Source: Escherichia coli
GTDB lineage: Bacteria; Pseudomonadota; Gammaproteobacteria; Enterobacterales; Enterobacteriaceae
DNA: 64,000 nucleotides
NCBI RefSeq assembly: GCF_030384885.1
Contig: NZ_CP128613.1
Direction: 5' to 3' (one strand)
Made by a program: the position numbers and the translations under genes. Below are positions 10,228 through 36,166 of this stretch, piece after piece. Every line of letters starts with the position of its first letter. The stretch's first letter is position 1. A model generated the notes under the pieces. It worked only from the letters and a program-made list of their open reading frames with translations. It was not told where the DNA came from and made no database searches.

Positions 10228-10399
10228 TAACCTTGCAGGGAGATTCATTATCTCCCTGAGATTTATCCTTTATTGACTACACAACAATAATGAAATTACT
10301 CAAAAAGAATTCTATTAAAGGAAAAAAGCATCAAAAAGTAGCAACTCAACTTATTAAGATTATACGCATTAAAATCAGATAAACATTTGAGGTATTGTT

Positions 10400-11542
10400 A
10401 TGACAAATAAACACCCATCATTGTTTTCTCCTTTTATGCTGACAGAAAAAATAAAGCTACGTAATCGTATCGTTATGGCCCCTATGACGACCTGGTCAGC
10501 GAATCCTGATGGAACCATCTCTGAGCAAGAACTCGAATTTTATAAACGCCGCTCACAAAATGTTGGTTTAGTAATAACAGGATGTACCTATGTCACGCCA
10601 AGCGGCATTGGGTTTACTCATGAATTTGCCGCATATGACGACCGTTTCATTAACAGCCTTGAAAAGTTAGCAGCGGCAGCCCAAAGTGGGGGTGCTCCGG
10701 CTATTTTGCAGATTTTCCACGCCGGTAATAAAGCCATCCCGGAGCTTGTACCAAATAACGATGTTATTAGTGCCAGCGCATCAAGCGTAAAATCTGGTGA
10801 CTTTATGAAGAGAGTGGTACAAAGCAGGGAAATGACTGAAAACGAAATTCAGGAAACCATTAGAGCATTCGGAGATGTCACAAAAAGGGCGATTAAAGCA
10901 GGTTTTGATGGCATTGAACTTCATGGTGCGCACGGATTCCTTCTACAGAATTTCTTCTCCCCTCTATTTAACCAGCGTAATGACCGATGGGGAGGAGATC
11001 TCGAAGGACGTATGCGCTTCCCGCTGGCCGTATTACAGGAAGTAAAAAATGTAGTCTATGAATATGCGACAAAGCCCTTTGCCATCGGTTACAGAATATC
11101 TCCTGAAGAATCTGCAACAGGGGGGCTGCGGATAGAGGATACTTATAAACTCCTTGATCGGCTCATTTCATCCGGTATTTCGTATATACATACCTCGCTG
11201 GTCAGTATTAACGATAGCTACCCTGTTGAGTCGCCAAATGGCCCCCGAACTATTGAATTGATTTTAAATCATATTGCAGGCAGAGTGCCGGTAATCGCTG
11301 CAGGTAAAATACGCACACCGTCTCAGGCTCAAGAAGCAATTTCCACTGGCCTGCCACTTGTTGCGATCGGTAAAGGGCTGGTGATAAATCCAGAATGGGT
11401 GACTTTAGCTGAATCAGGTAGAGGCCATGAAATTCAAACAACCCTTAATCCACAACTTGTTCCTGAATTAACCATTCCGGATAAACTATGGGATCAAATT
11501 CAGACATCGAAAGGAACTGGCTGGTTTCCGTTAATGGATTAA
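10400..11542 (+). CDS. NADH:flavin oxidoreductase (Old Yellow Enzyme family)
   Basis: 380-aa ORF; RIVMAPMTT.. and HGAHGFLL motifs typical of OYE/NemA-type reductases. Confidence 0.75.
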   Translation: MTNKHPSLFSPFMLTEKIKLRNRIVMAPMTTWSANPDGTISEQELEFYKRRSQNVGLVITGCTYVTPSGIGFTHEFAAYDDRFINSLEKLAAAAQSGGAPAILQIFHAGNKAIPELVPNNDVISASASSVKSGDFMKRVVQSREMTENEIQETIRAFGDVTKRAIKAGFDGIELHGAHGFLLQNFFSPLFNQRNDRWGGDLEGRMRFPLAVLQEVKNVVYEYATKPFAIGYRISPEESATGGLRIEDTYKLLDRLISSGISYIHTSLVSINDSYPVESPNGPRTIELILNHIAGRVPVIAAGKIRTPSQAQEAISTGLPLVAIGKGLVINPEWVTLAESGRGHEIQTTLNPQLVPELTIPDKLWDQIQTSKGTGWFPLMD

Positions 11543-15925: not shown

Positions 15926-18451
15926 ATGCCTTTACGACGGTTCTCCCCAGGACTGAAAGCCCAGTTTGCCTTCGGCATGGTCTTTTTGTTCGTTCAGCCC
16001 GATGCCAGCGCTGCTGACATAAGCGCGCAGCAAATAGGTGGGGTGATTATTCCGCAGGCCTTCAGTCAGGCGCTTCAGGACGGCATGAGCGTCCCGCTCT
16101 ATATTCATCTTGCCGGTAGCCAGGGTCGCCAGGACGATCAGCGAATCGGCAGCGCTTTTATCTGGTTGGATGATGGACAGTTACGCATCCGGAAAATACA
16201 GCTGGAAGAGAGTGAAGATAACGCCAGTGTCAGCGAACAAACTCGACAGCAGCTGATGGCTCTGGCGAACACCCCGTTCAATGGGGCCCTTACCATCCCC
16301 CTGACTGACAACGCGCAGTTGGATCTCAGCTTGCGCCAACTGCTGCTGCAGCTGGTAGTCAAGCGCGAAGCACTGGGCACCGTACTACGCTCACGTAGCG
16401 AAGACATCGGGCAATCCAGTGTTAACACCCTCAGCAGTAACCTGAGCTATAACTTCGGCATCTATAACAACCAGTTGCGTAACGGCGGGAACAATACATC
16501 CAGCTATCTGTCGCTAAATAACGTGACAGCACTGCGCGAACATCATGTGGTGCTCGACGGCTCGCTGTATGGGATCGGTAGCGGTCAACAGGACAGTGAA
16601 TTATATAAAGCGATGTATGAACGCGATTTTGCTGGTCACCGATTTGCCGGTGGAATGCTCGACACCTGGAACTTGCAGTCCTTAGGGCCGATGACCGCCA
16701 TTTCAGCAGGGAAGATTTACGGCCTTTCCTGGGGAAACCAGGCCAGCTCCACCATCTTCGACAGCAGCCAGTCGGCCACGCCAGTGATCGCCTTTTTACC
16801 TGCAGCGGGCGAAGTACATCTCACCCGTGATGGGCGGTTACTGAGTGTTCAGAACTTCACCATGGGCAATCATGAAGTGGATACCCGAGGTCTACCGTAC
16901 GGTATTTACGATGTGGAAGTTGAGGTGATCGTTAACGGTCGCGTGATCAGCAAACGCACTCAACGGGTCAATAAGCTGTTTAGCCGGGGGCGCGGTGTCG
17001 GTGCGCCGCTGGCGTGGCAGATATGGGGCGGTAGCTTTCATATGGATCGCTGGTCGGAAAACGGGAAAAAGACGCGACCAGCTAAAGAGAGCTGGCTAGC
17101 AGGTGCCTCGAGCTCCGGCTCACTGAGTACGCTTAGCTGGGCGGCAACGGGATATGGATACGATAATCAGGCGGTGGGTGAAACCCGTCTGACGCTGCCG
17201 CTTGGGGGAGCGATCAACGTTAACCTGCAAAATATGCTGGCCAGTGACAGCTCATGGAGCAGCATCGGCAGCATCAGCGCCACTCTACCGGGAGGCTTTA
17301 GTTCGCTATGGGTTAATCAGGAAAAAACCCGCATTGGCAATCAATTGCGACGTAGCGATGCCGACAACCGTGCAATCGGCGGCACACTCAACCTGAACTC
17401 ACTGTGGTCGAAGCTGGGCACATTCAGCATCAGCTACAATGATGACCGCCGTTACAACAGCCATTATTACACGGCAGATTACTATCAAAATGTCTACAGC
17501 GGTACCTTTGGTTCGCTTGGCCTGCGAGCCGGTATTCAGCGCTATAACAACGGCGACAGCAGCGCCAATACAGGGAAATATATCGCTCTCGATCTCTCGC
17601 TACCTCTGGGCAACTGGTTTAGCGCAGGGATGACCCATCAAAACGGCTACACCATGGCAAACCTGTCAGCACGCAAACAGTTTGATGAAGGGACCATTCG
17701 CACTGTTGGTGCCAATCTGTCACGAGCCATCTCCGGCGATACCGGTGATGACAAAACCCTCAGCGGTGGGGCGTATGCACAGTTCGACGCTCGTTACGCC
17801 AGCGGAACGCTGAACGTCAATAGCGCGGCGGACGGCTACGTCAATACCAACTTAACTGCCAATGGCAGCGTTGGCTGGCAGGGTAAAAACATTGCTGCCA
17901 GCGGGCGGACTGATGGCAACGCCGGGGTGATATTCAATACCGGGCTGGAGGACGACGGTCAGCTCAGCGCCAAAATCAACGGACGGATTTTCCCGCTTAA
18001 CGGCAAGCGCAACTACCTCCCGCTCTCTCCGTATGGGAGATATGAGGTGGAGTTGCAGAACAGCAAAAACTCAATCGACAGCTACGATATCGTCAGCGGC
18101 CGCAAAAGCCATCTGACCCTCTATCCAGGCAATGTCGCCGTCATTGAGCCAGAGGTGAAGCAGATGGTTACCGTCTCCGGTCGTATCCGTGCAGAAGACG
18201 GCACACTGCTGGCTAACGCACGGATTAACAACCATATCGGCCGAACCCGAACCGATGAAAACGGCGAGTTTGTCATGGACGTGGATAAGAAATACCCCAC
18301 TATCGATTTTCGCTACAGTGGCAATAAAACCTGCGAAGTGGCACTGGAACTCGACCAGGCGCGCGGTGCCGTCTGGGTCGGTGATGTGGTCTGCAGCGGC
18401 CTCTCATCGTGGGCGGCGGTGACGCAGACAGGAGAAGAGAATGAGAGTTAA
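15926..18451 (+). CDS. ecpC: pilus usher (outer-membrane)
   Basis: 841-aa ORF, operon context. Confidence 0.85.
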
Positions 18452-20084
18452 CCTACTGATAGCGATGATAATCTTTGCGCTATTCTGGCCAGCAACCGCG
18501 CTCAGAGCTGCAGTGAGCAAAACAACCTGGGCGGATGCACCGGCACGCGAGTTTGTGTTTGTCGAAAACAACTCAGACGACAACTTTTTCGTCACTCCTG
18601 GCGGGGCGCTGGATCCGCGCCTGACCGGTGCCAACCGCTGGACCGGTTTAAAATACACTGGCTCAGGAACCATCTATCAACAAAGCCTCGGCTACATTGA
18701 TAACGGTTACAACACCGGCCTTTATACCAACTGGAAGTTTGATATGTGGCTGGAAAATTCGCCGGTTTCATCTCCTTTAACTGGCTTGCGCTGCATCAAC
18801 TGGTACACAGGGTGTAATATGACCACCAGTCTTATCCTGCCGCAAACCACCGACGCCAGTGGATTTTATGGCGCGACGGTGACCAGCGGCGGCTCGAAGT
18901 GGATGCACGGCATGTTGTCAGACGCGTTTTACCAGTATCTGCAACAAATGCCCGTTGGCAGCAGCTTTACGATGACCATCAATGCCTGCCAAACCTCAGT
19001 GAACTATGACGCCAGCAGCGGCGCGCGCTGTAAGGATCAGGCCTCCGGCAACTGGTATGTTCGCAACGTCACCCATACGAAAGCAGCAAATTTGCGGTTG
19101 ATAAATACCCATTCGCTGGCGGAGGTATTTATCAACAGCGACGGAGTACCGACTCTGGGCGAAGGGAACGCCGACTGCCGGACGCAAACCATCGGCAGCC
19201 GTTCAGGATTAAGTTGTAAGATGGTTAACTATACCCTGCAAACAAACGGGCTCAGCAACACCTCAATCCATATATTCCCGGCGATCGCCAACTCGTCGTT
19301 AGCCTCGGCCGTCGGGGCGTACGATATGCAGTTCAGTCTGAATGGCAGTTCATGGAAACCGGTGAGCAATACCGCCTATTACTACACCTTCAACGAGATG
19401 AAGAGCGCAGACTCGATCTATGTTTTCTTCTCGAGCAACTTCTTTAAGCAGATGGTGAACCTGGGGATCAGCGATATCAACACCAAAGATCTATTCAACT
19501 TTCGCTTTCAGAACACCACATCACCGGAGTCTGGCTGGTATGAATTTTCTACCTCCAACACGCTGATTATCAAACCCCGTGATTTCAGCATCAGTATTAT
19601 CTCCGATGAATATACTCAGACACCGTCGCGAGAGGGATATGTCGGCAGCGGCGAACCGGCACTCGATTTCGGCTATATCGTAACCACCAGCGGTAAAACA
19701 GCTGCCGACGAAGTGCTGATCAAGGTGACCGGACCCGCGCAGGTGATTGGCGGGCGCTCCTATTGTGTCTTCAGCTCCGATGACGGTAAGGCGAAAGTAC
19801 CGTTCCCGGCGACGCTTTCCTTTATTACCCGCAACGGAGCTACAAAAACCTACGATGCCGGGTGCGATGATAGCTGGCGGGATATGACCGATGCGCTGTG
19901 GCTAACCACACCGTGGACTGATATCTCTGGCGAAGTGGGGCAGATGGATAAGACCACAGTCAAATTTTCGATTCCAATGGATAACGCCATTTCGCTGCGT
20001 ACGGTAGATGATAACGGCTGGTTTGGCGAAGTCAGCGCTTCAGGAGAGATTCATGTTCAGGCGACGTGGCGTAACATTAACTAA
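18441..20084 (+). CDS. ecpD: pilus tip adhesin subunit
   Basis: 547-aa ORF overlapping ecpC end, operon context. Confidence 0.85.
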
Positions 20085-20763
20085 GACCCTGCTGACAGTG
20101 GTCTGTATGCTGGCGACACCTTTGACACAGGCGATTTCGGTCGGCAATCTGACTTTTTCACTGCCGTCCGAGACTGACTTTGTCAGCAAACGTGTAGTGA
20201 ATAACAACAAAAGCGCGCGGATATACCGTATTGCCATCAGTGCCATCGATAGTCCAGGCAGCAGTGAATTGCGCACTCGACCGGTGGATGGTGAACTGCT
20301 TTTCGCTCCCCGCCAGCTGGCGTTGCAGGCTGGTGAGAGTGAGTATTTTAAATTTTACTATCATGGTCCACAGGATAACCGCGAGCGCTACTACCGGGTC
20401 TCATTTCGCGAGGTCCCCACTCGCAACCAGACAAGACGCAGCCCAACCGGCGGCGAGGTCAGCACGGAGCCGGTGGTGGTGATGGATACCATTCTGGTAG
20501 TACGACCTCGTCAGGTTCAGTTTAAATGGTCCTTCGACCAGGTGACAGGAACGGTAAGTAACACCGGCAACACGTGGTTTAAGCTACTGATTAAACCAGG
20601 ATGTGATTCGACCGAAGAGGAAGGCGACGCCTGGTATCTACGTCCGGGAGACGTAGTTCATCAGCCTGAGTTACGTCAGCCGGGGAATCATTATCTGGTC
20701 TATAACGACAAATTCATTAAGATTAGCGATTCCTGTCCTGCTAAGCCCCCTTCGGCGGACTAA
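20053..20763 (+). CDS. ecpE: pilus chaperone-like protein
   Basis: Internal Met ([11 protein letters not shown]) gives 236 aa; overlaps ecpD 3' end. Confidence 0.8.
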
Positions 20764-21076
20764 GACTTATCCATCGGACGAGGGAAGAATTCCACCTCAG
20801 AGACTCAAATAATCGTTTAAATGATGTGGAAGCGATCGTCAATGTCACCTGTAATGATGGGCTTTCTCATATGTACACCATAGTGTTCAGGAGACACGGA
20901 AAAGTGCCAGGCAGCCTGCTAACGAGTGGTTTCTTCACGAATTAGTACGTAAAATCGGTAACGGCTGGAAATCATTCAATACTCACACTATCGAAAGTTC
21001 CCCAGCCAACCGCGGTACGTTCTTACATACGATGTACCGCTGTTCTCTTTACGATTTATAGCTGTACTGGTGAATT

Positions 21077-21406
21077 ATGAGCAATCTGAATCCATGCATG
21101 ACGTGTGGTGCCTGTTGTGCATTTTTCCGCGTCTCTTTTTACTGGGCCGAAGCCGACGATGCTGGCGGTACCATTCCCGCCAGGCTCACTGAACAAATAT
21201 CCCCTTTTCACCGATGCATGAGCGGTACCAATCAGAAAAACCCCCGATGTATTGCCCTTGCAGGAACACCGGGCAAAAATGCCTGCTGCACGATATATAA
21301 AAATCGATCGTCCACGTGCAGAGAATTCGCCATGTCTGGTGAGAACGGAGAAGTCAATGAGGCTTGCAATCGTGCAAGAGCTAAATACGGGCTGACACCG
21401 TTATAA
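21077..21406 (+). CDS. ykgJ: Cys-rich ferredoxin-like/zinc-binding protein
   Basis: 109-aa ORF with CxxCxxCC and further Cys clusters. Confidence 0.8.
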
Positions 21407-21654
21407 ATATGCAATAATTAATTGCACTGCCCCGCCAGCTATAATCGCGGGGCTTCGTTTTTCAGGGATAACAAAACCCGAAACTTCTTCCATCTGCCAG
21501 CAACAATGCCTCTTCCTCTATAGTGTTCTCCGGATCTACAGCATCCTGAAGTAGCGCGATGTACTCACTGGCTATCTGCATCAGAAAGTTAAAAACAATG
21601 TTTTTAACCTATAAAAATGGCGCTGTATTTGCGCCATTTTTATCATTCAATGCA

Positions 21655-22269
21655 TTATCTGTTTGAGCCTAAAGGGATCTCAGGGTCTGGCTCATGAGTA
21701 ATTCTGTTTCGTAAATCTCTGCGAATAATTTCAATGGACCAGAACCAGACTAAATGTCCAAAAATTTCAGAAACATTCTCATACCACGGGAGATCAAACA
21801 GAGGTGGCGTCAGTCCCATGAGAGGGAATGAAATCATATGAACAAAAAGTTGGGCTAAAGCACCTGCCAGTAAGCCCTGCCAGAGTTTAATTTTTGGAAA
21901 TACTTCAGCGACCACACAATAACCGACAGCAAACACTATCGAAAAGATAATGTGCGTAACACCAACCCAGTTAAAGACATGCCCGGCAAAGGTATAAACA
22001 GCCGCATTGGGATCTGTCAGCCCCAGCCAGTCTCGAAGAAAAATATACGGAGGATTGAGAAAATTACGGGAGCAATCAATTTGCCCAGCAGCCCTGATTA
22101 ATGATTCCGGGCCACACGCTGCATTAAACATATCCACCGGGCTACGTGGCGGCAATGGAACTTCAGCCCCCCACTTCACAAATGCGGAAACAACGCCAGC
22201 AATTAGCCCAATGAATGCAGCAAGACCATAACGTCTGCGGTTCGGTGGAGTTTGTTCAAATATATTCAT
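21655..22269 (-). CDS. yagU: inner-membrane protein, DUF1440 family
   Basis: 204-aa ORF, multiple hydrophobic segments; matches recollection of YagU. Confidence 0.85.
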
Positions 22270-22475
22270 ATTTACCCTGTTTGTTTCATTATGTTGTACA
22301 CCTCTTCAGGAGTATTCATAAAACAAGATAAATGTAAAGAACTGTATTGTTTTGTATAATGCAATGGTGACTAATCGCCAATTAATATAAGCACCATCAT
22401 TTCTCCATATTTTTATGTTAGAAGTGACAAGGAGAAATGTAATGTTTCTCTCAGAGAATATAAATCATTCCTTTT

Positions 22476-22500
22476 GCCCACCTTAATGGTGGGCTTTTTT
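22476..22500 (+). terminator. rho-independent terminator of a short transcript
   Basis: GCCCACC-TTAA-TGGTGGGC hairpin followed by TTTTTT; extended -10 TGTATAAT at 22353-22360 about 120 nt upstream. Confidence 0.5.
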
Positions 22501-22730
22501 ATGCAAAACCTGAACACCCTGTGGTATTCCCCTGGCATTATCACTTTCGCGATTAACCAACAGCCAGACCAGCAAACACGCCACTACAGGCACAGCAAAA
22601 TCCATCAGGCTTGCCACACCCCATGCGTGCGGCTCAAAGCCGCCCCGCCATGGCATATTAATCCGCTTACCATTTTCGAACAGCTGATTGGTTTAGTCCG
22701 GTGTTTCCCTGCTTGCACTTAAAAATGAGC

Positions 22731-22820
22731 GGATGGGAAACTCTCGAAATGGTTCGTCGATATGCTCACCTTTCAGTCAGGCATTTCACCGCGCACGCGA
22801 GCAAAATCAAAGGCACATGA
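22731..22820 (+). pseudogene. 3' remnant of a second P4-type integrase gene
   Basis: Encodes ..[14 protein letters not shown].. then stop, matching the C-terminus ([14 protein letters not shown]) of the intact integrase at 34943-36106; lies directly beside the left att copy. Confidence 0.6.
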
Positions 22821-22851
22821 GGAGAATGTGGTTGACTTAAAAACGAGGAAA

Positions 22852-22913
22852 CTTATTGATTTAAATGGTGCCGATAATAGGAGTCGAACCTACGACCTTC
22901 GCATTACGAATTA
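22852..22913. repeat. left 62-bp direct repeat (att copy; duplicates 3' part of tRNA-Thr plus 16 bp)
   Basis: Identical to 36105-36166 by direct comparison. Confidence 0.8.
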
Positions 22914-23282
22914 TAAGAATCCGTTTCTAATTCAAAGCATTACCACATCAACACTGCGCTCACACGTCCCACCACATCAAAACATGTAAAGCCTTGCAAG
23001 CCATTGTGAGGCCTTATGTGTCTCAGTTTTGTCCCACCTTGTATTACGACTTGCATAACCAATGAAGATAAACGTGACGACAAACGACGCAGCAGTCTTC
23101 TTTTCTTTCACACTTTCCCCACTCAGCATGCATACCTTCTACTATAACTGTAGTGAATGTCTGTTATGAGCGAGGAGCGGACTATCTTTCTGTGCTAAGC
23201 ACAGAAGTTTAAATTAATAAATAGAGATTAAGATGTTTATTGGTTACATTGATATTTATAATTTGATTGCCTTGAAATTCCT

Positions 23283-23322
23283 AAGCCGAATTCATGACGT
23301 CTTCATCACATGAATTCGGCTT
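23283..23322 (-). terminator. hairpin downstream of the 447-aa cargo gene (possible terminator)
   Basis: Perfect 14-bp stem AAGCCGAATTCATG/CATGAATTCGGCTT, 12-nt loop, about 30 nt past the stop codon; no clean U-run. Confidence 0.35.
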
Positions 23323-23351
23323 ATGCATAATACTAAGTTGGTTTTATTAAG

Positions 23352-24695
23352 TCATTTCTTTGCCGCGCTTTTATTGCACTTCTTACAGCCTTCAATCAAT
23401 TTTTCAGTTATTATATAATAATAAGGAATGTAAATGTTTAACCCGCAAGTTTTAATCGAATCGAAAGCAAGAACTTTCACAATGGATTCTTCTCCATCTT
23501 TCTCCATTAGCAATATATCACTTAAAGGCAAATCATTAGGATTGTAAATCCTCACATCGCCAGGCTGTCTTTCATAGGCTTCGATGTCATCACCTGGTTG
23601 GCCATAGGCTAAATGAGTGGCTTTAATCCAGTTTATTGGTTCAGCATTTTGACACCAGGAGATTATTTTTTCTAATTTTTCAGGTGTGTAAGCTTTTACA
23701 TAATCTCCATGTTTTTCACATCTACCTAGTTCTGAAAAATGGCCCAGGGTGTATTCATAAGAATAATCACCAGCAGTCAATGGTAGTCTAAAGTATTGCT
23801 GAGGCAATGCCTTCTGGACTTTGGTTTTACTCAGCAAATTAAAGGTGATATCATAAAGTTGATATAGACAAACACCCTCTCGATCTGGATATCCATAAGG
23901 CTTGATGTCAGAAAGCATCTCAATATCAGAATTATAAACACTTGCATAATCATCACTTCCAAACATGAAAAAACCTTTTGATAGAATGAATATTGCATTA
24001 GGAAGAACGTTTTTTTCAAAATTCTGCGAGTGAGTTTTTATTTCTTGTACTATGTCCATCCAATCCATATCAGTATCATAGGCGAAGATAATTCCAAAAC
24101 CATTAGTCTGAATTCTCTCCTCTGAATGTATAAATATGTTCTGATTTATACCATGTTTCTTTAGTTTTTTGAATGAGCGGATATTTTCGAAAGCACTTTT
24201 CAGTTCTTTTTTTGTTAGTTTTGACTTAACCTGAATCACACCATAGCAGTACTCCACAGGTAAAACCTCAAAAATTTCCTGTCGCTGCATAAGCGAAAAT
24301 GAATTAAAAGCATCATAAAAAAGAATGTCGATTTCATTACTGAGATGTCCTGAGGTTGACGCTACACGGACACTTGATTTTGAGATGGCATAGCTTTGCG
24401 GTAAGAGTTTATTTTCATTGAAAAAGCATCTTAAGAGTTCCTCTCTGACAGTACCAACATCTCTTGGATGCTTAATATCTTTCGATATTTCAAAATCTTG
24501 AAGCATTTTCCTCTGTAAGTGAATGAACTCCCTTTCAAGACCATAAAATTCTTTATCTTTAGATCTCAGTTTGCTTGCACGAGAAACTTGATCGGATATC
24601 CATTCCTTTGTGCGAGACTCTCTCTCAGCAAAATCATCACGTTGTTTTTTTACAGCACCGGTCAAGCGTTTTCTTGTGTTTTCATTATCGGACAT
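23352..24695 (-). CDS. hypothetical protein, low GC; possible PD-(D/E)xK / Mrr-like nuclease fold
   Basis: 447-aa ORF; motif ..SNEIDILFYD..(about 25 aa)..YGVIQVKSKL reminiscent of a D...(E/Q)xK nuclease core; AT-rich relative to neighbours; no confident family assignment. Confidence 0.55.
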   Translation of the reverse strand: MSDNENTRKRLTGAVKKQRDDFAERESRTKEWISDQVSRASKLRSKDKEFYGLEREFIHLQRKMLQDFEISKDIKHPRDVGTVREELLRCFFNENKLLPQSYAISKSSVRVASTSGHLSNEIDILFYDAFNSFSLMQRQEIFEVLPVEYCYGVIQVKSKLTKKELKSAFENIRSFKKLKKHGINQNIFIHSEERIQTNGFGIIFAYDTDMDWMDIVQEIKTHSQNFEKNVLPNAIFILSKGFFMFGSDDYASVYNSDIEMLSDIKPYGYPDREGVCLYQLYDITFNLLSKTKVQKALPQQYFRLPLTAGDYSYEYTLGHFSELGRCEKHGDYVKAYTPEKLEKIISWCQNAEPINWIKATHLAYGQPGDDIEAYERQPGDVRIYNPNDLPLSDILLMEKDGEESIVKVLAFDSIKTCGLNIYIPYYYIITEKLIEGCKKCNKSAAKK

Positions 24696-25214
24696 AAATT
24701 AACCTTAAGTTGATAAGTTTTGTGGTGAATTTATAAAGCCTGAGGGATAAACATTTATAGTCTATAAGTTACTATTTATTTGAGATAGTAAGCCAATTTT
24801 ATTAGATGAAGAAACGTTCATAACCTCCTCAACTACGTTTCAATCGGCAACATCGGAGAAGTACACTTTGACAATATATAGCATATTGAAGCAGCTGTAA
24901 CTTAGAGCGCGTACACTCAAGATTTCCCGCTGCGGTGATGGCGGACGACTGCGTTTGATAACTCATTTCCCTCACCAACTATCGGACCTGTTCCTGATTG
25001 ATTATCACATTATAATGTGAGCAATGTCCGCTCCTAGCACATAGCAGTTCTAGAGACAATGGCGTAAAGTCATGGAGAATCGGTGGGAGGATATTCAGTT
25101 TCATTCATGCCGAAATACGGTAAAATCTATAACAGATAGAAATCATTCAATATTCGCACTATCAGAAGCTGGCCAGCCAACCGCGCACGATTTTGCATAC
25201 GACATGCTACGGTT

Positions 25215-25814
25215 TCATTTATCTCCGACCGGAAACTTCTTATACAGTGTCGATACACCAACATCATAGATGATCTCCACCTTCTGGCGAGGAACGCCTG
25301 ATGCAATTAATCGCCCGGCCTGCGCCCTTTGTTCTGGTGTAAGTTTGGGACGACGTCCACCAATTCGTCCCTGTGCGCGAGCAACTTCCAGTCCAGCTTT
25401 TGTTCGTTCAACAATCAGTTCTCGTTCCATTTCAGCCAGGGCACCCATCACATGAAAGAAAAAACGCCCCATCGGTGTGCTGGTATCAATAGCATCCGTC
25501 AGGCTGCGAAAATTAACGCCACGTTCGCGCAACTCCTCAACCAGAATGACCAGATGGACAAGCGTGCCGGGACCGGGTTTATTCAGCGCTTCAATCAGGC
25601 GATCGCGCTGGTCAAAGCAGTCATCTCCCACCACATAAGCTGTGATGGACGGGCGGAAAGTGACTTTTCCCAGATCTTCGGTATAGGGCTTGTCGCGGTT
25701 CGGGTATTCATGTGTTTCCACACGGCGACCGGTTCCCGCACTTTCTTCTTCAACCTTAAACGGCACACCTCGAAATGACGCATCCTGAAGCCTGTCTTTC
25801 CACGTCATATACAC
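25215..25814 (-). pseudogene. chimeric ORF: C-terminal half of a Pin/Gin/Hin-family serine DNA invertase fused to a Mu-N-like (DNA circularisation protein) N-terminus
   Basis: C-terminal about 110 aa (VEELRERG..FRSLTD.IDTSTPMGRFFFHVMGALAEMERELIVERT..GGRRPKLT..) matches invertase C-terminus and HTH; catalytic Ser-containing N-terminus missing; first about 85 aa (WKDRLQDASFRGVPF..GRRVETHEYPNRD..EDLG) resembles phage DNA_circ_N proteins. Confidence 0.6.
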
Positions 25815-25869
25815 TCCGAAAATAAAAAAGCCACCTATTAGAAGGTGGCCTTGTAATGAATTTTATTAA

Positions 25870-26400
25870 TTAGCGAGTCAGAAACAACGAATCTTTATAC
25901 TTTTGCTGTTGTTCATTTAAATACTTAGCTGTTTCATCGCTGGCAAATGGAAATATTACCGTATTTTTAGGCATGGTAATTTCTTTTTTGTCCAGCGTCA
26001 GAGTAAACATAGGAACATACTGAGCAGAGTAACGCACCGCAGAAACGAGCTCTAGTTTAGACTCTTCAATAACACTTAAATTATCCAGGCTAACTTTCTC
26101 TTCATCTTTTTTCTTTGACGCATTTAAAGTTTTTATTACTTTATTTAATTTCTCCTGAAAATCCTCCTTAAAGTTTTCAGGATTGCCGTCGACAACAAGA
26201 ATCTGTTCACCCTGATTATCTGGAAAAATAATCTTTGCACTTATCAATTTATTTTCTTTATAAACATCACCAAGTTTTATGGCTCCTCCAGATAACTGAA
26301 TAATATGTTCATCTTTAAAGGAGATGTTGCCAGAGATTATGAGAGATGAAAAAATAGCCGCTGCTCCAAGAATTACACTTGCTGTGATATAGCCTTTCAT
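25870..26400 (-). CDS. hypothetical membrane-anchored/secreted protein, low GC
   Basis: 176-aa ORF with N-terminal hydrophobic segment MKGYITASVILGAAAIFSSLIISG; Lys/Glu-rich; AT-rich. Confidence 0.5.
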   Translation of the reverse strand: MKGYITASVILGAAAIFSSLIISGNISFKDEHIIQLSGGAIKLGDVYKENKLISAKIIFPDNQGEQILVVDGNPENFKEDFQEKLNKVIKTLNASKKKDEEKVSLDNLSVIEESKLELVSAVRYSAQYVPMFTLTLDKKEITMPKNTVIFPFASDETAKYLNEQQQKYKDSLFLTR

Positions 26401-26491
26401 TTTTCGCCTATTAACATTTTTCTAAATGTGCATTAATTCTATCACTCTATTTATGACTTACAACCAGCAATACATGTGAGGGGAATCCTGG

Positions 26492-27623
26492 CTACCAAAA
26501 TCGGGTATAGCCAACATCGTGATTTATATCAATGCCACTGGAGCGTGTTTCCGTAACCCGCATACCTGGTGGCATATTTATAAATGATACCTTGATCTCA
26601 CCATCAACTTTTGGCGCGGTAGCTTTATTAATCATGAAGGGATTCGGGCCTGTGGCATCGGAGGCGTTGTTTGCCTGAGCCGGATCCACCGCCGGATAAG
26701 GAGTGTATCCCCGTGCCGGTATTCCCGTCTTCGATATTGTTGAAGGTGGCGCGATCGGTGTTCTGCACCATGTGCAACGGCACCCGGAACAGACGACAGA
26801 TTTCTTCAAGCTGAAACTTGCGGGTTTCCAGGAACTGGCTGTCCTCGGCGTTCAGCGCCATCGACTTCCAGTCCAGCCCCATCTCAAGGATCATCGGGCG
26901 GTGAGCATTACCAAGCCCGGTGTGACGCTCCTCAAAATCTTTCTTCAGGCGCTCATAAGCCTGATCCGACAGCGTCTGTTCTGTACGCAACACACCCGAC
27001 GTCACCGCGCCATTGCTGAACAGTCTGGCCCCGTGCTCTTCGGTCGCAGCTGCCAGCGATATTGCCTCACGGGCATAGGCGATGGGATTCAGTCCCACCA
27101 GACCGTCCAGCGTCAGCGTGCGCACATGCCAGATATCCTCCTGGCTCAGTACATCCGTGGAGCCATCCGGGAATGTGACCTGATAGACCGGCTCCCAGCT
27201 ACTGTTAAGCTTCGGTACCACACAGCCGGGATCGACGGGCAGCAGTTCAGCCACTTCGCCAAATGCTTTCACTTTGTAGGCGTAAAAGTTTCCCCGCAGG
27301 CACAGACAGGTGACCACCAGCTCCCAGAACTCCTGCGGCGTCATATAGCCATTGGGATGCGTGGAGATCAGCTTATGCAGACGTTCGCCAGTGGCTCTCT
27401 GCTTCAGGCTGCCGTTCAGGTGATACAGGTTGCAGGGCAACATCCCGACCGACTCCGCCAGCACCCTGACACAGGAAAAAACCGCCGTCAGTCGCATGGC
27501 CCGCTGGCTGCTGATCTGCTTTCCGGTATAGGTGTCGTAGGACAACCCGATGGCATCCGCCAGCTCTGCTGGCGTGGTCACCGGTGCGTCACTTTTTCGT
27601 TGAAATAATCCCGAAAAGAACAC
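26492..27623 (-). pseudogene. phage portal protein (HK97-family), frameshifted and 3'-truncated
   Basis: 331-aa ORF with portal-like N-terminus continues in another frame as a 105-aa ORF (26492-26809); normally followed by protease/capsid genes, which are absent. Confidence 0.6.
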
Positions 27624-27805
27624 TATTTACCTCCGCCGACAGACAGCTGTGTACGATCGAGATATCGCGCCACCAGCCACGACCAGAACAGGCACAGCGC
27701 CCCGGCAACAACAAAACCCGCCGGGGGATAAATCAGCCAGGCACCATATGCCAGCAAAAGCGCACCCAGCACGCCCACCAGAGGCGCGAGAATCAGCATG
27801 ATCAT
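27623..27805 (-). CDS. small hydrophobic phage protein
   Basis: 60-aa ORF, two hydrophobic stretches, between terminase and portal. Confidence 0.3.
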
Positions 27806-27816
27806 AATTACCTCAG

Positions 27817-29550
27817 TTAAAGCGAGCGGATCCCGTAGGACTCAATGTGGTCAGACAGCGTGTCTTCTTTCTCGTACAGCATGGCTCTGCCAACCGCCAT
27901 AATCAGCGCAACTGCACCATCGATTTTGTTTTCCGCCTGCTCTTTGACGGGTTTCACCACATCATCGTTACCCGGAATGGTTTTGCCGACCACGTTGCCG
28001 ATACACCAGGTCATGATGGGATTGCCGTCATGATGAAAGCGCCCCGATTCAATTGCCGCTTCCAGCTCTTTCATCGGGTCGGACATGTTGGTGTAGTTCT
28101 GAATGATAGTGATGGGGTTCAGGTCTTCATCAGCAAGGTCATGTGACAACCCGGTCGCCCCGAAGGGGTCGATGGGTGACTCACTGACCGGGCTGATTTT
28201 GTTCGCCGCTTTGGCCTCCTCGAGGATGTAGCGATAATCCACCTCCGCACCATCGGTAACGGTCAGAACGCCCATTTCCACCCATTTCTGAAAGCGTTCG
28301 GCTGTCCGTCGATCTTCATTTTTCTCGACGCTGTACACCGTGTCATACGGTACCCAGAAACGCGGGGCCACACTGTAGTAATGCGTTTTACCGTCAATCT
28401 CGCGGGTATAAAGTCGCGCCATGCTGTTCATATCCAGCTTACGCGCCAGGTCAAAGGCCAGAATGCACGGCTGCCCCTCGAACTGCTCAAGAGTCAGTGA
28501 TTTATCCTCGCATCTCTGCCAGCTCACCAGGTTGAAATACGCCGAACGCGCCGACACCCAGATATTGAGGTGTTTTGTTTTAAAGACGTTTGCCAGACGG
28601 GCGTTATTTTTCGCACGTTGCTGCTGGCTTAACAAAAACTCGCGATAAACCGACACACCGATATTCGGGTTAGCTTTTTCAAGTACCTGCGGGTCGGTCC
28701 AGTCGTCGCCTTCGTCAACGGTATAGATGATCCCGAACAGTTCATCGTTGGGCACCGAGCCGTTGAGCATCTCGATGACTTCCCGCCGTTTGTCGTAGCA
28801 CGGCCCCTCAATGTTGTACCCGGCGGTGGTAATGGCCCACATCAGTGGCTGGCGTCGCGCCCCCATCCCGGTAAGCATCGTGGTGTAAAGCGCATCTGTG
28901 GCGTGCTCGTGATATTCATCCACCACCGCACAGTGGGGTGATGAACCATCACCGGGGTTACCGATCAGCGGTTCAAACCGCGCACCATCCTCCGGACGGT
29001 TCATGTTTGAGGCGTTAACCTCAATCCCGAACGCTTCCGTCAGCATGGGTGTGCGTTTACACATCAGTCGTGCCGGACGAAAGACTTCCCATGCCTGTTT
29101 CTCCGTCGTGGCACCGGAATACACTTCCGCGCCGAACTCGTTATCACAGGCAAAACAATACAGGGCGACACCGGCAGAGATTGCCGATTTGCCGTTCTTA
29201 CGGGGGATTTCGGTATACACCTCACGGAAGCGGCGCAGCCGGGAGCCTTTATTGACCCAGCCAAACGCGCAGCAGATCACAAAGAGCTGCCACGGCTCCA
29301 GCGTGATGGGCATCCTCTTAAATGCCCACTCACCCTTGGTGTGCGGCAACAGCTGAATAAATTTCGCGGCCCGTTCAGCCAGGTCCTTGTCGAAGCGGTA
29401 ACGAAACGACTTACTTTTTTCCTCCATCAGGTCATCAAGATGGCGCTGGCAGGCCTGAATCACAAACTGGCAGGCCACAATCTTTCCGTGCACGACATCA
29501 CGGGCATACTGATTGGCAGCATTTACGTTGGGGTAAGATTTCCGGCTCAT
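27817..29550 (-). CDS. phage terminase large subunit
   Basis: 577-aa ORF with ATPase Walker-like region and C-terminal nuclease region; overlaps small-subunit stop (ATGA). Confidence 0.9.
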
Positions 29551-30050
29551 GATTCGATGATTTTCAGAAACGGGTTAGTGGCTTTCTTCTGCCCCGCCAG
29601 GCCAATCAGACGCTGGCGGCTGCTGGGGTCGAGTCCGAGCATTGCCCCCGTACTGCTCATCTCGGACTCCTGTTCTTTTTTGGCGGTCAGCTCCGGATTT
29701 TTGACCATACCGCCCATTGCACCGGTGATGGTGTTGCCCTGTCTGGCAATATTTTTCACGGCACGTCGCCAGAACTCGTAGGCCACGCACCACCGCTCAA
29801 GCACCGCGAGGTCAGTCACGCACAGCAGGCCCTGACCGCAGAGTTCTTTAGTTGTCAGTTGCCACATGATCGTGGCGAGAGGGAGATCTTCTTCAGCGAA
29901 CCACTCCGGTGGCTCAACACCTTTGATGGGCGTAAAAACAGGTTCATCTTTATTCAGGGCTCGCTTGCCGGGGTTTCCGGCCAGCGCCTTGCGCGCCGTT
30001 GGCTTGGGGCGACGCCCGGAACGCCCCGCCGTTCCAGCCATATGCGGCAC
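29547..30050 (-). CDS. phage terminase small subunit (P27-like)
   Basis: 167-aa ORF, basic N-terminus [22 protein letters not shown], immediately upstream of large subunit. Confidence 0.8.
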
Positions 30051-30166
30051 TCCTGGTTAAATTTCATTTTTCGCGGGTATAAAAAAACGATGGGGCGGGC
30101 AGTCCGGAAGACGTCAGGTCACAGGGATTTGACCCGCCCCTCCCCTCTGGCAGTGGGAACTGGTTC

Positions 30167-30517
30167 TTACTTCAGCCGTTCACGGGCCGTCTTCGCCTTA
30201 TGACACGGCCAGCACAAACTCTGCAGATTACTGTCGACATCAGTGCCGCCATGCGATTTAGGGATGATGTGGTCAACGGTCTTCGCCTCACGCACCACAC
30301 CAGCACGCAGACATAACTGACACAGGCCTTTGTCACGCTTCAGGACACGCGCGCGGATACTGTCCCACTTCGAACCGTAGCCGCGCTGATGACGGGATTG
30401 TCCAGGTTTGTATTGCTTCCAGCCTTCGCTTTTGTGGCTTTCGCAGTAGCCTGAAGGGTCCGTGGTTGTAAAGCGGCAGCCGCGAACACGGCAGGCTTTT
30501 GGGGTTCGTGGGGGCAT
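30167..30517 (-). CDS. HNH endonuclease (phage packaging-associated)
   Basis: 116-aa ORF with CxxC...HIIPKSHGG..D..NLQSLCWPCH HNH motif. Confidence 0.85.
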   Translation of the reverse strand: MPPRTPKACRVRGCRFTTTDPSGYCESHKSEGWKQYKPGQSRHQRGYGSKWDSIRARVLKRDKGLCQLCLRAGVVREAKTVDHIIPKSHGGTDVDSNLQSLCWPCHKAKTARERLK

Positions 30518-31041
30518 ATGTACTCCAATGAAGAAACCAGCGAAATAGCTGCCTTCATTCGTAGTAAACCTTTTTCATCAACGCAGTAATGGATTCTTTG
30601 AAGAGTCGCGATCAATACAACTCACTAATGGAGAGACTTGTCTCACGCATGAGACAAATTTCCCGTTTGATTTAATGGACACTATAGAGGGACAGAATGC
30701 CTTCCTCACTCGAATCACATCAATTAAGGAGGTTCAACATGTTTCATTCCACAAGTCATCAGGCTGTAATTATGGCAGCATCAGTTTGTGCCAAAGACCT
30801 TTTCCGCTTCACTTTGAGCCTGATTCATTTCTACCTGACCGGCTCGCCTCTATCTTTTTAATCCCCGCTTTATCCAAATTGCATTGCCATAATGCCGACA
30901 ACACACTGACATTCAAATCCAGACTACCTCCAATAGTCTGACCGTACACCTATATAGTTTTAATTTTCATCAATCCATTTAACTATCGTTTAATTGTTGT
31001 CACATAGGATTCTGCCGTTTTTAACAATGCAGGATAATAAG

Positions 31042-31335
31042 ATGAAAAAAATGTTGTTTTCTGCCGCTCTGGCAATGCTTATTACAGGATGTGCTCAACA
31101 GACGTTTACTGTTGGAAACAAACCGACAGCAGTAACACCAAAAGAAACCATCACCCATCATTTCTTCGTTTCGGGAATTGGACAGGAGAAAACTGTTGAT
31201 GCAGCCAAAATTTGTGGCGGCGCAGAAAATGTTGTTAAAACAGAAACCCAGCAAACATTCGTAAATGGATTGCTCGGTTTTATTACTTTAGGCATTTATA
31301 CTCCGCTGGAAGCGCGTGTGTATTGCTCACAATAA
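31042..31335 (+). CDS. bor: Bor/Iss-family outer-membrane lipoprotein
   Basis: 97 aa from internal Met; lipobox LITGC; closely matches recollection of lambda Bor. Confidence 0.9.
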   Translation: MKKMLFSAALAMLITGCAQQTFTVGNKPTAVTPKETITHHFFVSGIGQEKTVDAAKICGGAENVVKTETQQTFVNGLLGFITLGIYTPLEARVYCSQ

Positions 31336-31366
31336 TTGCATGAGTTGCCCATCGATATGGGCAGCT

Positions 31367-31828
31367 CTATCTGCACTGCTCATTAATATACTTCTGGGTT
31401 CCTTCCAGTTGTTTTTGCATCGTGATCAGCCTCTCTCTGAGGGTGAAATAATCCCGTTCAGCGGTGTCTGCCAGTCGGGGGGAGGCTGCATTATCCACGC
31501 CGGAGGCGGTGGTGGCTTCACGCACTGACTGACAGACTGCTTTGATGTGCAACCGACGACGACCAGCGGCAACATCATCACGCAGAGCATCATTTTCAGC
31601 TTTCGCATCAGCTAACTCCTTCGTGTATTTTGCATCGAGCGCAGCAACATCACGCTGACGCATCTGCATGTCAGTAATTGCCACGTTCGCCAGCTTCAGT
31701 TCTCTGGCATTTTTGTCGCGCTGGGCTTTGTATGTAATGGCGTTATCACGGTAATGATTAACCGCCCATGACAGACAGACGATGATGCAGATAACCAGAG
31801 CGGAGATAATCGCGGTTAATCTGTTCAT
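31367..31828 (-). CDS. Rz: i-spanin Rz
   Basis: 153-aa ORF, N-terminal TM, coiled-coil; closely matches recollection of lambda Rz. Confidence 0.9.
31426..31608 (-). CDS. Rz1: o-spanin Rz1 (embedded in +1 frame of Rz)
   Basis: 60-aa ORF with lipobox VVGC and proline-rich PPPPP segment, fully inside Rz. Confidence 0.8.
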
Positions 31829-32301
31829 ACCTCAATCTCTCTGACCGTTCCGCCCGCTTCTTTGAATTTTGCAATCAGGCTGTCAGCCTTATGCTCGAAC
31901 TGACCATAACCAGCGCCCGGCAGTGAAGCCCAGATATTGCTGCAACGGTCGATAGCCTGACGAATATCACCGCGATCAATCATCGGTAAAGCGCCACGCT
32001 CTTTAATCTGCTGCAATGCCACTGCGTCCTGGCTTTTGGGGGAGAAGTCTTTCAGGCCAAGCTGCTTACGATAGGAATCCCACCAACGGGAAAGAAGCTG
32101 GTAGCGCCCGGCTGCTGTTGATTTGAGTTTTGGGTTTAGCGTGACAAGTTTGCGAGGGTGATCGGAGTAATCAGTAAATAGCTCTCCGCCTACAATGACG
32201 TCATAACCATGATTTCTGGTTTTCTGCCGTCCGTTATCCGTTCCTTCTGACCATGCCACCATATCGAGGAAAGCTTTACGCTGAGGATTAAGATTTTGCA
32301 T
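31825..32301 (-). CDS. R: endolysin, lambda R-type lytic transglycosylase
   Basis: 158-aa ORF closely matching recollection of lambda R (..[31 protein letters not shown]..). Confidence 0.9.
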
Positions 32302-32605
32302 TTTTCACCCCTGTCAGTCGTTCCCAGAAGTACGTCAGTGCAACCGAACCCATCGCACCACTAATCCCCGCTGTCGCGAGAATCATGTAAATACTGAATC
32401 CACTTTCGATGCTGATCAGGCCACCAATAACACCGGTGAATCCTGATACCACTATCTGAGCCAGAGCATTTATCCAACTCCACGTTGCTTTACTCTGCTT
32501 CACATCTATCAGGTAGCGGACTAGACCGCCCCAACCTGCGATGATCAGCAAAACGAGCCAGAACGCTCCGGCAAGGCTCTCTTTTTCGTGCATATGAATA
32601 GCCAA
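32288..32605 (-). CDS. putative holin
   Basis: 105-aa ORF with hydrophobic helices, overlapping start of endolysin; not lambda S-like. Confidence 0.55.
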   Translation of the reverse strand: MAIHMHEKESLAGAFWLVLLIIAGWGGLVRYLIDVKQSKATWSWINALAQIVVSGFTGVIGGLISIESGFSIYMILATAGISGAMGSVALTYFWERLTGVKNAKS

Positions 32606-32711
32606 TGTTTCGCCGCCGACAAAAGGCCGGGACGTTAAATGTCAGAAATCAGGCTCACGGGGTAATTTAACGACAAAGCACGGAGTTGATGCTCCCCGCA
32701 AGCCTGGAATA

Positions 32712-32734
32712 AAAAAGCCAGCATGTAGCTGGCA
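32712..32734 (-). terminator. intrinsic terminator of short late-promoter transcript (tR'-like)
   Basis: On minus strand GCCAGCTACATGCTGGC hairpin followed by TTTTTT, between Q and the holin. Confidence 0.5.
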
Positions 32735-32914
32735 ACAGAGGGTTAAGCAATATCAACTCAACAGCTGAAGACACCCTGGCTGGGGTACATTGGAAGGATA
32801 CTCACCGCCCAGAAACAGAAAAGCCCAAGGCTTTAAACCTCGAGCTTGAATTTGGATTACTGCCAGTGCGTACAACATTGGCAAAATATCAGATTTATAT
32901 GAAATATATGCTTT

Positions 32915-33604
32915 TTAATCCAGTTTTGCAATATTTTGCTGTGAAAATGTCGCCTTTTGTTTTGAACGTGTTCTCGTTAGAAGCAATAAAGCTTCGCTAT
33001 CAAGCTGTAGAAAAATGTGCTTCATTGCAACCCAGCGTTCAGTGAATGTCTCAGACCAGTTTTTTGATGTCACTCCCACCAGTGACGCCAGTTCCTGGTA
33101 TTCATAAGCCTCACGCCCTGCCAGTTCGCTCTTCACATCCTGTGCCGCCAGCCAGATCAACTTCTTCAGGCGTTCCAGTGTCTTACCTGCAATTTTTCTG
33201 GTACCCAACAGAGTCTTAAACTCGCTCCATGCCCACTGCGTTATGGCAACCTGATGCTCCCAGCGAATATTTTCACTGTAACTCCACAGCAACCATGCTT
33301 TCTGATGCTCATCGAGAGACAGAACAGCGCGGCGCCATGAAGAGGTTGAAAACTCGACCGGACTGATCAGGGCGACAGATGAACCTTTTGCGTACGACTG
33401 TTTACCGGAAATCGGCAGATTATCCAGCATAATAATCTTGCCAGTTACCTCATCCAGAATGCGTCGCTTCTTTCGTTTGTATGTACCAGTATCAAATTGT
33501 GCATGCTCCAGCCAGGCTTCAAGCTGGCCTTTCGTTGCTCCGCTCAAGTCAGCGGTAGCCACCATGAGTTGCTCGCGGACATATTGTAAATATTGGGTAT
33601 TCAT
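32915..33604 (-). CDS. late-gene antiterminator Q-like protein
   Basis: 229-aa ORF directly upstream of the lysis cassette and downstream of rusA; position-based, not lambda-Q-like in sequence. Confidence 0.55.
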   Translation of the reverse strand: MNTQYLQYVREQLMVATADLSGATKGQLEAWLEHAQFDTGTYKRKKRRILDEVTGKIIMLDNLPISGKQSYAKGSSVALISPVEFSTSSWRRAVLSLDEHQKAWLLWSYSENIRWEHQVAITQWAWSEFKTLLGTRKIAGKTLERLKKLIWLAAQDVKSELAGREAYEYQELASLVGVTSKNWSETFTERWVAMKHIFLQLDSEALLLLTRTRSKQKATFSQQNIAKLD

Positions 33605-33737
33605 GCGGCAGCTCCTTTCAGTGTTTTGGCGTAATTCCTCAGTATTCGGTAATCGGTCAAAACAGAACCGGGGAAACGATATAAGCGCAGATGCCCCCAG
33701 CGGTGGCGAAGAAGTTCTGCCATATAAAACTCAAACA

Positions 33738-34100
33738 TCATTCATTCCCCATTTCGGTGATGGTCAGTTCCAGCCTCCCACCTTTGGTAACAGGCATCTT
33801 CACAACACGGTAATCAACGACCTGAGCATCATCCAGCCAGAAACCTGCTTTAGTGAGTGCGTCAAAAGCGGCTTTTTGCAGATTATCCAGGTCACGGCGA
33901 CGGCGATCCGGCATGTGGCACTCAATGCGGATTTTCACAGGCATAGCCAGGCCGATATCCAGCATTGCGTTTTTAATGATTCGGGCGACGTTATCGCGGT
34001 ATGCCTGCCCCTCTGCGCTGACGTGCGTGCGCCCGCGATTATGGCGGTAATAGCGATTATTGCTCGGAGGCCAGGGTAATGTGATGCTGTAGGTATTCAC
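33738..34100 (-). CDS. rusA: Holliday junction resolvase RusA
   Basis: 120-aa ORF matching recollection of RusA (..[31 protein letters not shown]..). Confidence 0.85.
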
Positions 34101-34387
34101 GCCTTAATAACCCCCTCTTTCAGCCAGATAACCTGTGTTCTCGCCATACCTTCCAGCGCGCATTCTTTTGCATATGCAGCATCGACAAAATGTGTGCGGC
34201 GGTCGATTTCGTCGTGGCAGGCAGAACATGCAATGGTGGCAATCAGGTCTGGCGGTTTGGTACCGGTGCCGCACAATCCAGTCAGCCGGATATGTGCCAG
34301 TACAGACGTTTCAGGGTTGCCATTACATACGCCAGGGATTCTTACCTGGCATTCCCGACTACGCGCTGCTTTTCTCAAATCAGCCAT
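34097..34387 (-). CDS. phage protein, Cys-rich (DUF1364/YbcO-like)
   Basis: 96 aa from [10 protein letters not shown]; four Cys; nin-region position. Confidence 0.5.
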
Positions 34388-34550
34388 GATTCCTCCTTGC
34401 TGCCAGTCGCAACCATTTTTTATCAACCAGGCTGGCGGTATATCCGAGCAGTGTTGGTATTTCGGAAGGCTTCAGCTCCGGTTTACGCTTACGACGATTT
34501 GGTACTCTGTAGATGTGTCCGTTCATGACACGAATAAGCGGTGTAGCCAT
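34380..34550 (-). CDS. NinE-like small protein (56 aa)
   Basis: [56 protein letters not shown]; stop overlaps next start; not in ORF track. Confidence 0.45.
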   Translation of the reverse strand: MATPLIRVMNGHIYRVPNRRKRKPELKPSEIPTLLGYTASLVDKKWLRLAARRNHG

Positions 34551-34831
34551 TACGCCTCCTGTTTGTCGCGGAGCTGCTGGAACTCGCAGCTCTGCGGAAT
34601 AGTCAGGTGGCAGCCAATATTCATCGCCCAGGCTTCAACCTTACACAGGAAGACATACATCTCTCCGGTATCAAGATCGGAGGTATGGCGTAACGACTGG
34701 ATAGTGGTGATATCACCGGTTACGACATCAACCAGGTCTTTGGTTTCATAACCGAGATATGTGTGTTTGAGAGCATCTTTTACCCAAGCTGGAGTGGCGA
34801 ACGTTTTACAGGCAACACGCAAAGACCCCAC
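34550..34831 (-). CDS. phage nin-region protein, possibly 5'-truncated
   Basis: 93-aa ORF abutting the integrase upstream region. Confidence 0.35.
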   Translation of the reverse strand: MGSLRVACKTFATPAWVKDALKHTYLGYETKDLVDVVTGDITTIQSLRHTSDLDTGEMYVFLCKVEAWAMNIGCHLTIPQSCEFQQLRDKQEA

Positions 34832-34942
34832 TAAACCAAAATCTCCTTACCTCACAACGCGACAAGCCTGCATTGCGGCGCTTCAGTCTCCGCTGCATAC
34901 TATCAAGGTGAGCGCGGGTGATGGCATAACAGAGGAAAGAAA

Positions 34943-36106: not shown

Positions 36107-36166
36107 CTTATTGATTTAAATGGTGCCGATAATAGGAGTCGAACCTACGACCTTCGCATTACGAAT
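36105..36166. repeat. right 62-bp direct repeat (att copy overlapping tRNA-Thr 3' end)
   Basis: Identical to 22852-22913. Confidence 0.8.

Follow-up and report, generated by a model that had tools for sequence, protein, structure and literature searches.

The tRNA gene thrW is a known integration hotspot (PMC7545054), and a 46-bp att core has been published for the phages SfI, SfII, SfV, SfX and P22 (PMC3636060). Experiments showed that phage SfI integrates at the attL of an SfX prophage already present at thrW, which results in tandem prophages (PMC3306764). The insertion site of the vat island in strain CFT073 has also been described (PMC6592367), and the intF gene of K-12 has been classed as 'opposite divergent' ('OD') (PMC2951348).

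The stretch of DNA analysed here (the window; 64,000 nucleotides of the Escherichia coli contig NZ_CP128613.1, assembly GCF_030384885.1) carries the E. coli thrW locus in the reverse orientation to that of K-12, with thrW, encoding tRNA-Thr(CGU), as the sole tRNA gene detected by ARAGORN. An earlier note on this DNA had recognised an integrase 3' fragment beside the att copy distal to thrW and had read it as the tail of a P4-type integrase, left by a second island that had been deleted at a later stage. Combining alignments, phage and prophage comparisons and a survey of other E. coli chromosomes, we consider it likely, with a probability of roughly 0.85, that this fragment (int') is a non-functional scar left by an older lambdoid prophage for which thrW was the attachment site, and that an SfII-like phage was later inserted beside it. 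The features of the locus are as follows.

21655-22269, minus strand: yagU, an ORF forming the distal chromosomal flank of the thrW hotspot, annotated as yagU at the matching place in strain 2013C-4282.
22430-22549, no strand assigned: a 120-bp segment between the upstream region of yagU and the phage-derived DNA, with no match in K-12 or in the phage collection.
22550-22682, minus strand: 3' fragment of a phrog_1443 gene, a lambdoid-phage b-region gene of function not known, with its 5' part missing.
22682-22865, plus strand: int', an integrase pseudogene tail, comprising the last ~68 codons of a gene assigned to the HK542/mEp213/SfX-type integrases specific for thrW.
22744-22771, plus strand: a 28-bp block identical to 35970-35997 in the resident integrase gene, forming a direct repeat 13.2 kb apart.
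22866-22911, minus strand: distal att core, the 3' half that thrW originally had, now displaced, and the junction of the resident prophage far from its integrase gene.
22912-36104, no strand assigned: resident defective SfII/SfV-like lambdoid prophage of 13,193 bp, absent from 2013C-4282.
34943-36106, plus strand: resident integrase gene, encoding 387 aa, of the P22/SfII type.
36121-36196, minus strand: thrW (ARAGORN and core match), of which the 3' 46 bp (36121-36166) form the proximal att core and came with the resident prophage.
36311-37564, minus strand: proA, an ORF forming the chromosomal flank on the thrW side, annotated as proA in 2013C-4282.

Exact copies of the 46-bp att core occur only twice in the window (22866-22911 and 36121-36166), where none would be expected by chance, and both match the published core exactly. 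The exact duplicated block is longer, being 62 bp in length (22850-22911, identical to 36105-36166) and comprising the core and a further 16 bp. ARAGORN found no tRNA at the distal core copy. The resident integrase gene stops 14 bp short of the 3' end of thrW, and the last two bases of its stop codon lie inside the 62-bp block. Comparison with strain 2013C-4282 demonstrated that its chromosome matches 16300-22911 and 36105-42166 of the window, with one mismatch in 12.6 kb and with the two matches overlapping by 62 bp. In this strain the scar is located directly on an intact thrW and the resident prophage is missing. The window is therefore equivalent to that chromosome with a 13,193-bp insertion (22912-36104), and the resident 13.2-kb element did not make the scar. 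Since the bases of the distal core belong to the intact thrW in 2013C-4282, this core represents the 3' half that thrW had before the insertion moved it away. It arose from the integration of the resident prophage, and it is not a relic of an older element, as had been proposed when it was described as a pseudo-tRNA repeat left by the earlier occupant. The true boundaries of the insertion at thrW are accordingly those at 22912-36104, between the two 46-bp cores. In principle, strains with an empty site could be precise excisants instead of representing never-occupied sites.

The occurrence of the scar without the resident element, together with the varied occupants found beside it in other strains, indicates that the scar predates the resident element and does not depend on it. 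The reading of the tail as the footprint of an earlier occupant of thrW, on the distal side of the present element, is thus confirmed, and thrW has been occupied serially. The proposed order of events, in which a second island was deleted later, does not hold, as the older element had already been reduced to a scar on an intact thrW; of the two elements at this known hotspot, the one closer to thrW came later. A present tandem array would need three copies of the core, whereas two are present, and the older element amounts to a ~430-bp scar devoid of a far att site; the locus is therefore a degraded former series, not a present tandem array.

The reading frame at 22701-22820 (39 codons) encodes a conserved C-terminal integrase segment with the catalytic tyrosine (..RYAHL..), which aligns at the end of full-length integrases. 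The 14-residue catalytic-Tyr motif lies within this in-frame piece at 22731-22772, starting at the very position claimed for it. BLASTP with HK542 Int gave 22 identical residues out of 29 (aa 335-363 of 386, E 9e-14), compared to 18 out of 29 with the resident Int (aa 336-364, E 1e-10, tblastn in a small local search); judged by these alignments, int' is the better match to HK542 Int. A 49-aa translation of int' returned no Pfam match at E <= 0.1, covering only the last part of the 172-position PF00589 profile. The fragment had been described as encoding the last about 30 residues of an integrase. The reading frame is real, but the integrase-derived DNA is longer, extending over 22682-22865 (~68 codons) in three frames that are split by a 2-bp deletion near 22722 and a 29-bp deletion after ~22810, and the stop codon TAA has changed to AAA. 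Over this length, from 22682 to the end of the tRNA gene, int' is colinear with the int 3' ends of HK542 and of the prophage in strain HCP8S3_I1, with 159-161 identities in 184-185 ungapped columns, corresponding to ~87% identity to the 3' end of HK542/mEp213/SfX-type int genes. Similarity to the resident int gene is confined to 49 bp at 87.8% identity (22723-22771 versus 35949-35997), within which the longest exact common stretch is 28 bp; DNA alignment revealed no likeness outside these 49 bp. The suggested identity of about 85% to the intact integrase gene therefore holds for the 49-bp stretch and fails beyond it. In its VRRYAHL-coding block, int' is identical to the SfII type, the corresponding residues of HK542 being VQRYAHL. 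In other genomes, this DNA is labelled 'integrase, frameshifted, incomplete' by PGAP, and int' has no role as a gene.

The phages matching the DNA of int' include HK542, mEp213, mEp043, mEpX2, HK446, HK75, ECP1 and Shigella phage SfX, and in several of the corresponding records an attP is described as 'similar to thrW and ptwF'. Among full-length relatives located at thrW, the closest is encoded by the lambdoid prophage of strain HCP8S3_I1, in which kil, recT, gp157 and an HTH gene are neighbours of int. At 56% identity to each other, HK542 Int and the resident Int belong to one family. With its 3' end, int' runs directly up to the exact 46-bp core matching the 3' half of thrW and is convergent with it, as is the case for thrW-specific lambdoid integrases. 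On the strength of these comparisons, int' is assigned as the tail of an HK542/mEp213/SfX-type lambdoid integrase specific for thrW. The alignments to integrase 3' ends (HK542, HCP8S3 and part of the resident int) were thus significant, as the earlier note had anticipated. An intact integrase encoding the 15-residue motif (with VRH following) was absent from IMG/VR, in which degenerate-codon scans recovered nothing but this scar, on an E. coli-derived contig, and the GTDB species representatives gave 0 matches for the scar junction and 0 for the coding motif, offering no sign of the scar beyond E. coli. The exact parent allele of int' was therefore not identified in these two collections.

Considering the position of an integrase tail outside the distal att copy, and the presence of a distal thrW core copy (ptwF) in K-12 as well, one might suppose that a P4-type island of the intF/ptwF style once lay in tandem with the present island and was later deleted, leaving int' and its own pseudo-tRNA repeat. 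We regard this as very unlikely. No similarity was found between int' and P4 Int (BLASTP E 1.9, with the alignment in the wrong region), nor was there any significant similarity between int' and IntF (E 30) or between HK542 Int and IntF (E 0.25). The PF13356 arm domain is present in K-12 IntF and is named for P4 Int in the annotation of the P4 record itself, whereas the nearest full-length relatives of int', the lambdoid integrases of HK542, HCP8S3 and SfII, are without it, and both HCP8S3 Int and the SfII-type resident Int contain PF00589 only. In int' itself, the N-terminal ~320 codons of what would have been a protein of about 385 aa are deleted, including the part in which an arm domain would lie. 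The arrangement of the att site also differs, as the attP core of P4 (4078-4097) is upstream of int (3926 to 2607), on its 5' side, while in the window the core follows the 3' end of int', an arrangement unlike that of P4 and of intF-ptwF (PMC2951348). The P4-type label was therefore rejected. The likeness to intF was likewise abandoned, IntF being unrelated and facing ptwF with its 5' end whereas int' faces the core with its 3' end; what remains of that comparison is the distal partial copy of thrW found in both. Furthermore, with the scar seated on an intact thrW in the near-identical 2013C-4282, its decay needed no present element, and the distal core is half of the old thrW instead of a second relic.

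The left side of the scar bears on how the older lambdoid prophage may have been lost. yagU and the first 160 bp upstream of it share 96.8% identity with K-12, and the homology to K-12 stops at 22429. When 22400-22700 was searched against the phage database, only 22550-22682 was matched, with 87-89% DNA identity to the 3' end of the phrog_1443 gene in 47 Escherichia phages and also in prophages (PHROG profile positions 61-96 of 97, E 2.6e-13). In phage Lambda_2E9 this gene has the tail-fibre genes on one side and the b-region cargo, attP and int on the other, so that in a prophage it would be expected near the end opposite to int and on the opposite strand. In the window, the 3' remnant of phrog_1443 (minus strand) meets the 3' remnant of int' (plus strand) at ~22680, and this 3'-3' junction suggests that one internal deletion removed nearly the whole older prophage. 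The adjoining 120-bp segment (22430-22549) is conserved together with the scar in other E. coli genomes and contains a terminator-like hairpin with a T-run at 22476-22504 on the plus strand; it may be the last piece of the b (cargo) region of the old prophage. K-12 holds yagP-paoABCD (297308-302829, 5.5 kb) in place of window 22430-22811, and either a loss of pao in the scar lineage or a gain in K-12 would account for this difference. A search of the window for a third att core, allowing up to 12 mismatches, gave none that could mark where the old prophage once ended on its far side.

Based on these observations, a history of the locus can be proposed. The integrase of the older phage would have been of the HK542/mEp213/SfX kind, and the 3' end of its gene would have lain directly against the 46-bp att core. 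A single internal deletion may have fused the 3' end of int (plus strand) to the 3' end of phrog_1443 (minus strand) with loss of essentially the whole interior, and a further event, which we infer, would have removed the remaining b region and the far att site to leave ~430 bp between yagU and thrW. The int tail was then presumably degraded by small deletions and loss of the stop codon. The SfII-like phage would have entered the thrW core later by Int-mediated recombination, at a time when thrW was still flanked by the old int tail and the site resembled an int-side prophage junction. In doing so, it would have given thrW a new 3' half and shifted the old 3' half, together with the scar, 13.2 kb away. 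Most genes of the newer prophage, and the N-terminal half of its Xis, have disappeared since then.

Among the 5,426 complete genomes in the collection, the scar was found in roughly a fifth of the E. coli genomes, most being without it, and in 93 complete genomes it is contiguous with thrW-proA. The survey of thrW in other genomes suggested by the earlier note thus returned both empty scar sites and varied occupants. The left part of the scar is matched at >=95% identity by ~1,140 records; the window-type scar occurs in 175 genomes, and a chimeric scar is the commoner form (~1,000 E. coli genomes). Between scar and thrW, the occupants elsewhere comprise a prophage with Mu-like tail genes in LR-62-2, IS debris and a second integrase remnant in E2348/69, and the vat island in CFT073. 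An E2348/69 derivative contains two integrase remnants in series between yagU and thrW (local 7288-7446 and 10263-10778) with IS debris between them, indicating that at least two former occupants were stacked at one site. A third state of the scar is seen in K-12, where ~65 bp of an HK542-type int tail lie just outside ptwF (NC_000913.3 297209-297307), including part of the 29 bp deleted in the window and joined to the yagP flank. The distal core at 22866-22911 is homologous to this K-12 region, including 44 bp beyond the core. Comparison with K-12 intF-ptwF thus gave an unrelated intF but an HK542-type int tail at the flank of ptwF. The K-12 tail is a separate scar, lying outside intF and the annotated CP4-6.

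Such a distribution, with the scar in about a fifth of complete genomes, could be taken to mean that the scar is kept for a function, either as a terminator or regulatory context for thrW or as an arm-type region that makes thrW a better landing site for P22/SfII phages; integration into an attL-like thrW site has indeed been shown for SfI into SfX (PMC3306764). We consider this improbable, given that most E. coli genomes do without the scar, that frameshifts, deletions and internal stops have accumulated in it in a lineage-specific manner, and that 22682-22865, the part downstream of thrW, contains no terminator-like site.

Shigella phage SfII and Escherichia phage phi458 encode an Int 100% identical to the resident one, and the integrases of the P22 group are ~90% identical to it. 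Homology to SfII was detected at 34809-36166 (98.7%), beginning at codon 60 of the 145 codons of xis (34761-35066, with the junction at ~34809), and also at 22850-23036, which is the other attP arm, so that both attP arms are SfII-like. As SfII homology begins at codon 60, the Xis lacks its N-terminal DNA-binding part, and the resident prophage is probably unable to excise unaided, as judged from the truncated reading frame. Besides int and the truncated xis, Pfam analysis revealed RusA, Q, HNH, TerS, TerL, a truncated portal, a DNA_circ_N::resolvase fusion ORF and a DUF6602 protein, and annotations of prophages matching the element indicate lysis genes including a GH24 lysozyme. No gtr genes are present in the element. 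Prophages elsewhere match 61% of the resident element, and none of the complete genomes in the collection contains as much as 80%. The element is a deleted SfII-like prophage, and the 'island' at thrW should be annotated as a defective SfII-like prophage.

Three further observations concern the interior of this prophage. The 199-aa ORF at 25215-25814 (minus strand) combines the N-terminus of a Mu-like DNA circularisation protein (PF07157) with the C-terminal half of a resolvase/invertase (PF00239 and HTH_7), and it looks like a deletion fusion within the prophage. At the distal end, where SfII has gtrA/gtrB/gtrII, a 447-aa DUF6602 protein is encoded at 23352-24695 (minus strand), which may be a cargo gene. 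A stretch of ~270 bp inside the distal prophage end (22912-23182) is common to 12 genomes including LR-62-2, whose thrW prophage is much larger and carries Mu-like tail genes; this suggests that the window element is a deletion derivative of the LR-62-2 kind of phage.

The direct repeat formed by int' and the resident int gene (28 bp exact, 49 bp at 88%, 13.2 kb apart) raises the question of whether the scar has served as a recombination handle. A crossover inside the 28-bp block would remove an SfII-type prophage independently of Int and of Xis, the latter being truncated in the resident prophage, and a chimeric scar would stay behind, so that repeats shared with later P22/SfII-type int genes would allow such deletion in general, with the ~1,000 chimeric scars being crossover products and the window representing the precursor state. 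The chimeric scars of these genomes have the form predicted for a crossover in the 28-bp block. Of the informative sites in E2348/69 and CFT073, all those left of the block agree with the window scar and almost all those right of it with the resident int, giving one clean switch. A crossover in this block, together with the HK542-type tail also found in K-12, would make the window type ancestral by parsimony, and the exchange may have run from window-type to chimeric. We put this idea forward tentatively, at somewhat less than even odds. If it is true, homologous deletion of later prophages mediated by a scar would be a modest idea on how hotspots are cleared. The evidence that the scar recombined with the integrase genes of later arrivals is the only mildly new point of this analysis.

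The same repeats, namely the exact duplication of 62 bp and the 49-bp stretch at 88% identity to the resident int, could also be explained if int' and the distal core belonged to the resident element itself, for example through a partial self-duplication of int-attP at integration or by a later rearrangement. This is highly improbable, as int' follows the HK542 type and not the SfII type outside the 49 bp, and the scar occurs without the element in 2013C-4282, and in a total of 93 genomes, as well as beside unrelated occupants in other strains; the empty-site comparison with 2013C-4282 ruled it out. Finally, the suspicion that a frame of 39 codons undetected by Pfam is a chance ORF with a fortuitous motif is refuted by the match to HK542 Int at the exact C-terminal position (E 9e-14), by DNA homology that stays colinear over 184 bp up to the att core and by independent PGAP pseudogene calls in several genomes.

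We therefore retain the reading of int' as a lambdoid prophage scar beside a younger, SfII-like arrival. The feature is an ordinary prophage scar, already annotated by PGAP as an integrase pseudogene, and nothing in it challenges the current understanding of the locus; its value lies mainly in correct annotation and in the history of the site, for which the scar states (window-type, chimeric and K-12-type) provide a convenient lineage marker.

In comparison with known systems, the closest likeness is to the thrW-integrating lambdoid phages such as HK542, mEp213 and SfX, which likewise have an int 3' end abutting the 46-bp thrW core in colinear DNA; unlike their int genes, int' keeps only the last ~68 codons, broken by two deletions and with its stop lost. 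The scars beside the vat island in CFT073 and in E2348/69 share the same phrog_1443' junction and the same left part of int' (~94% identical). These two change to an SfII/P22-type tail inside the 28-bp block, whereas the scar of the window keeps its HK542-type tail and the 29-bp deletion. CP4-6 of K-12 occupies the same thrW hotspot, with a distal thrW core copy (ptwF) and an HK542-type int tail scar outside it. IntF itself, a 465-aa protein that contains the PF13356 arm domain, has no relation to int', its gene lying on the minus strand with the start next to the right end of CP4-6, and the K-12 int tail adjoins yagP-paoABCD whereas int' of the window adjoins phrog_1443' and yagU. The tandem of SfX and SfI in S. 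flexneri (PMC3306764) follows the same order as proposed here, in that a second phage with the same core enters the thrW-proximal attL and the older one is pushed away. Unlike that tandem, the older partner in the window had already been reduced to ~430 bp before the newer one arrived, and the newer element is without gtr genes and is itself defective.
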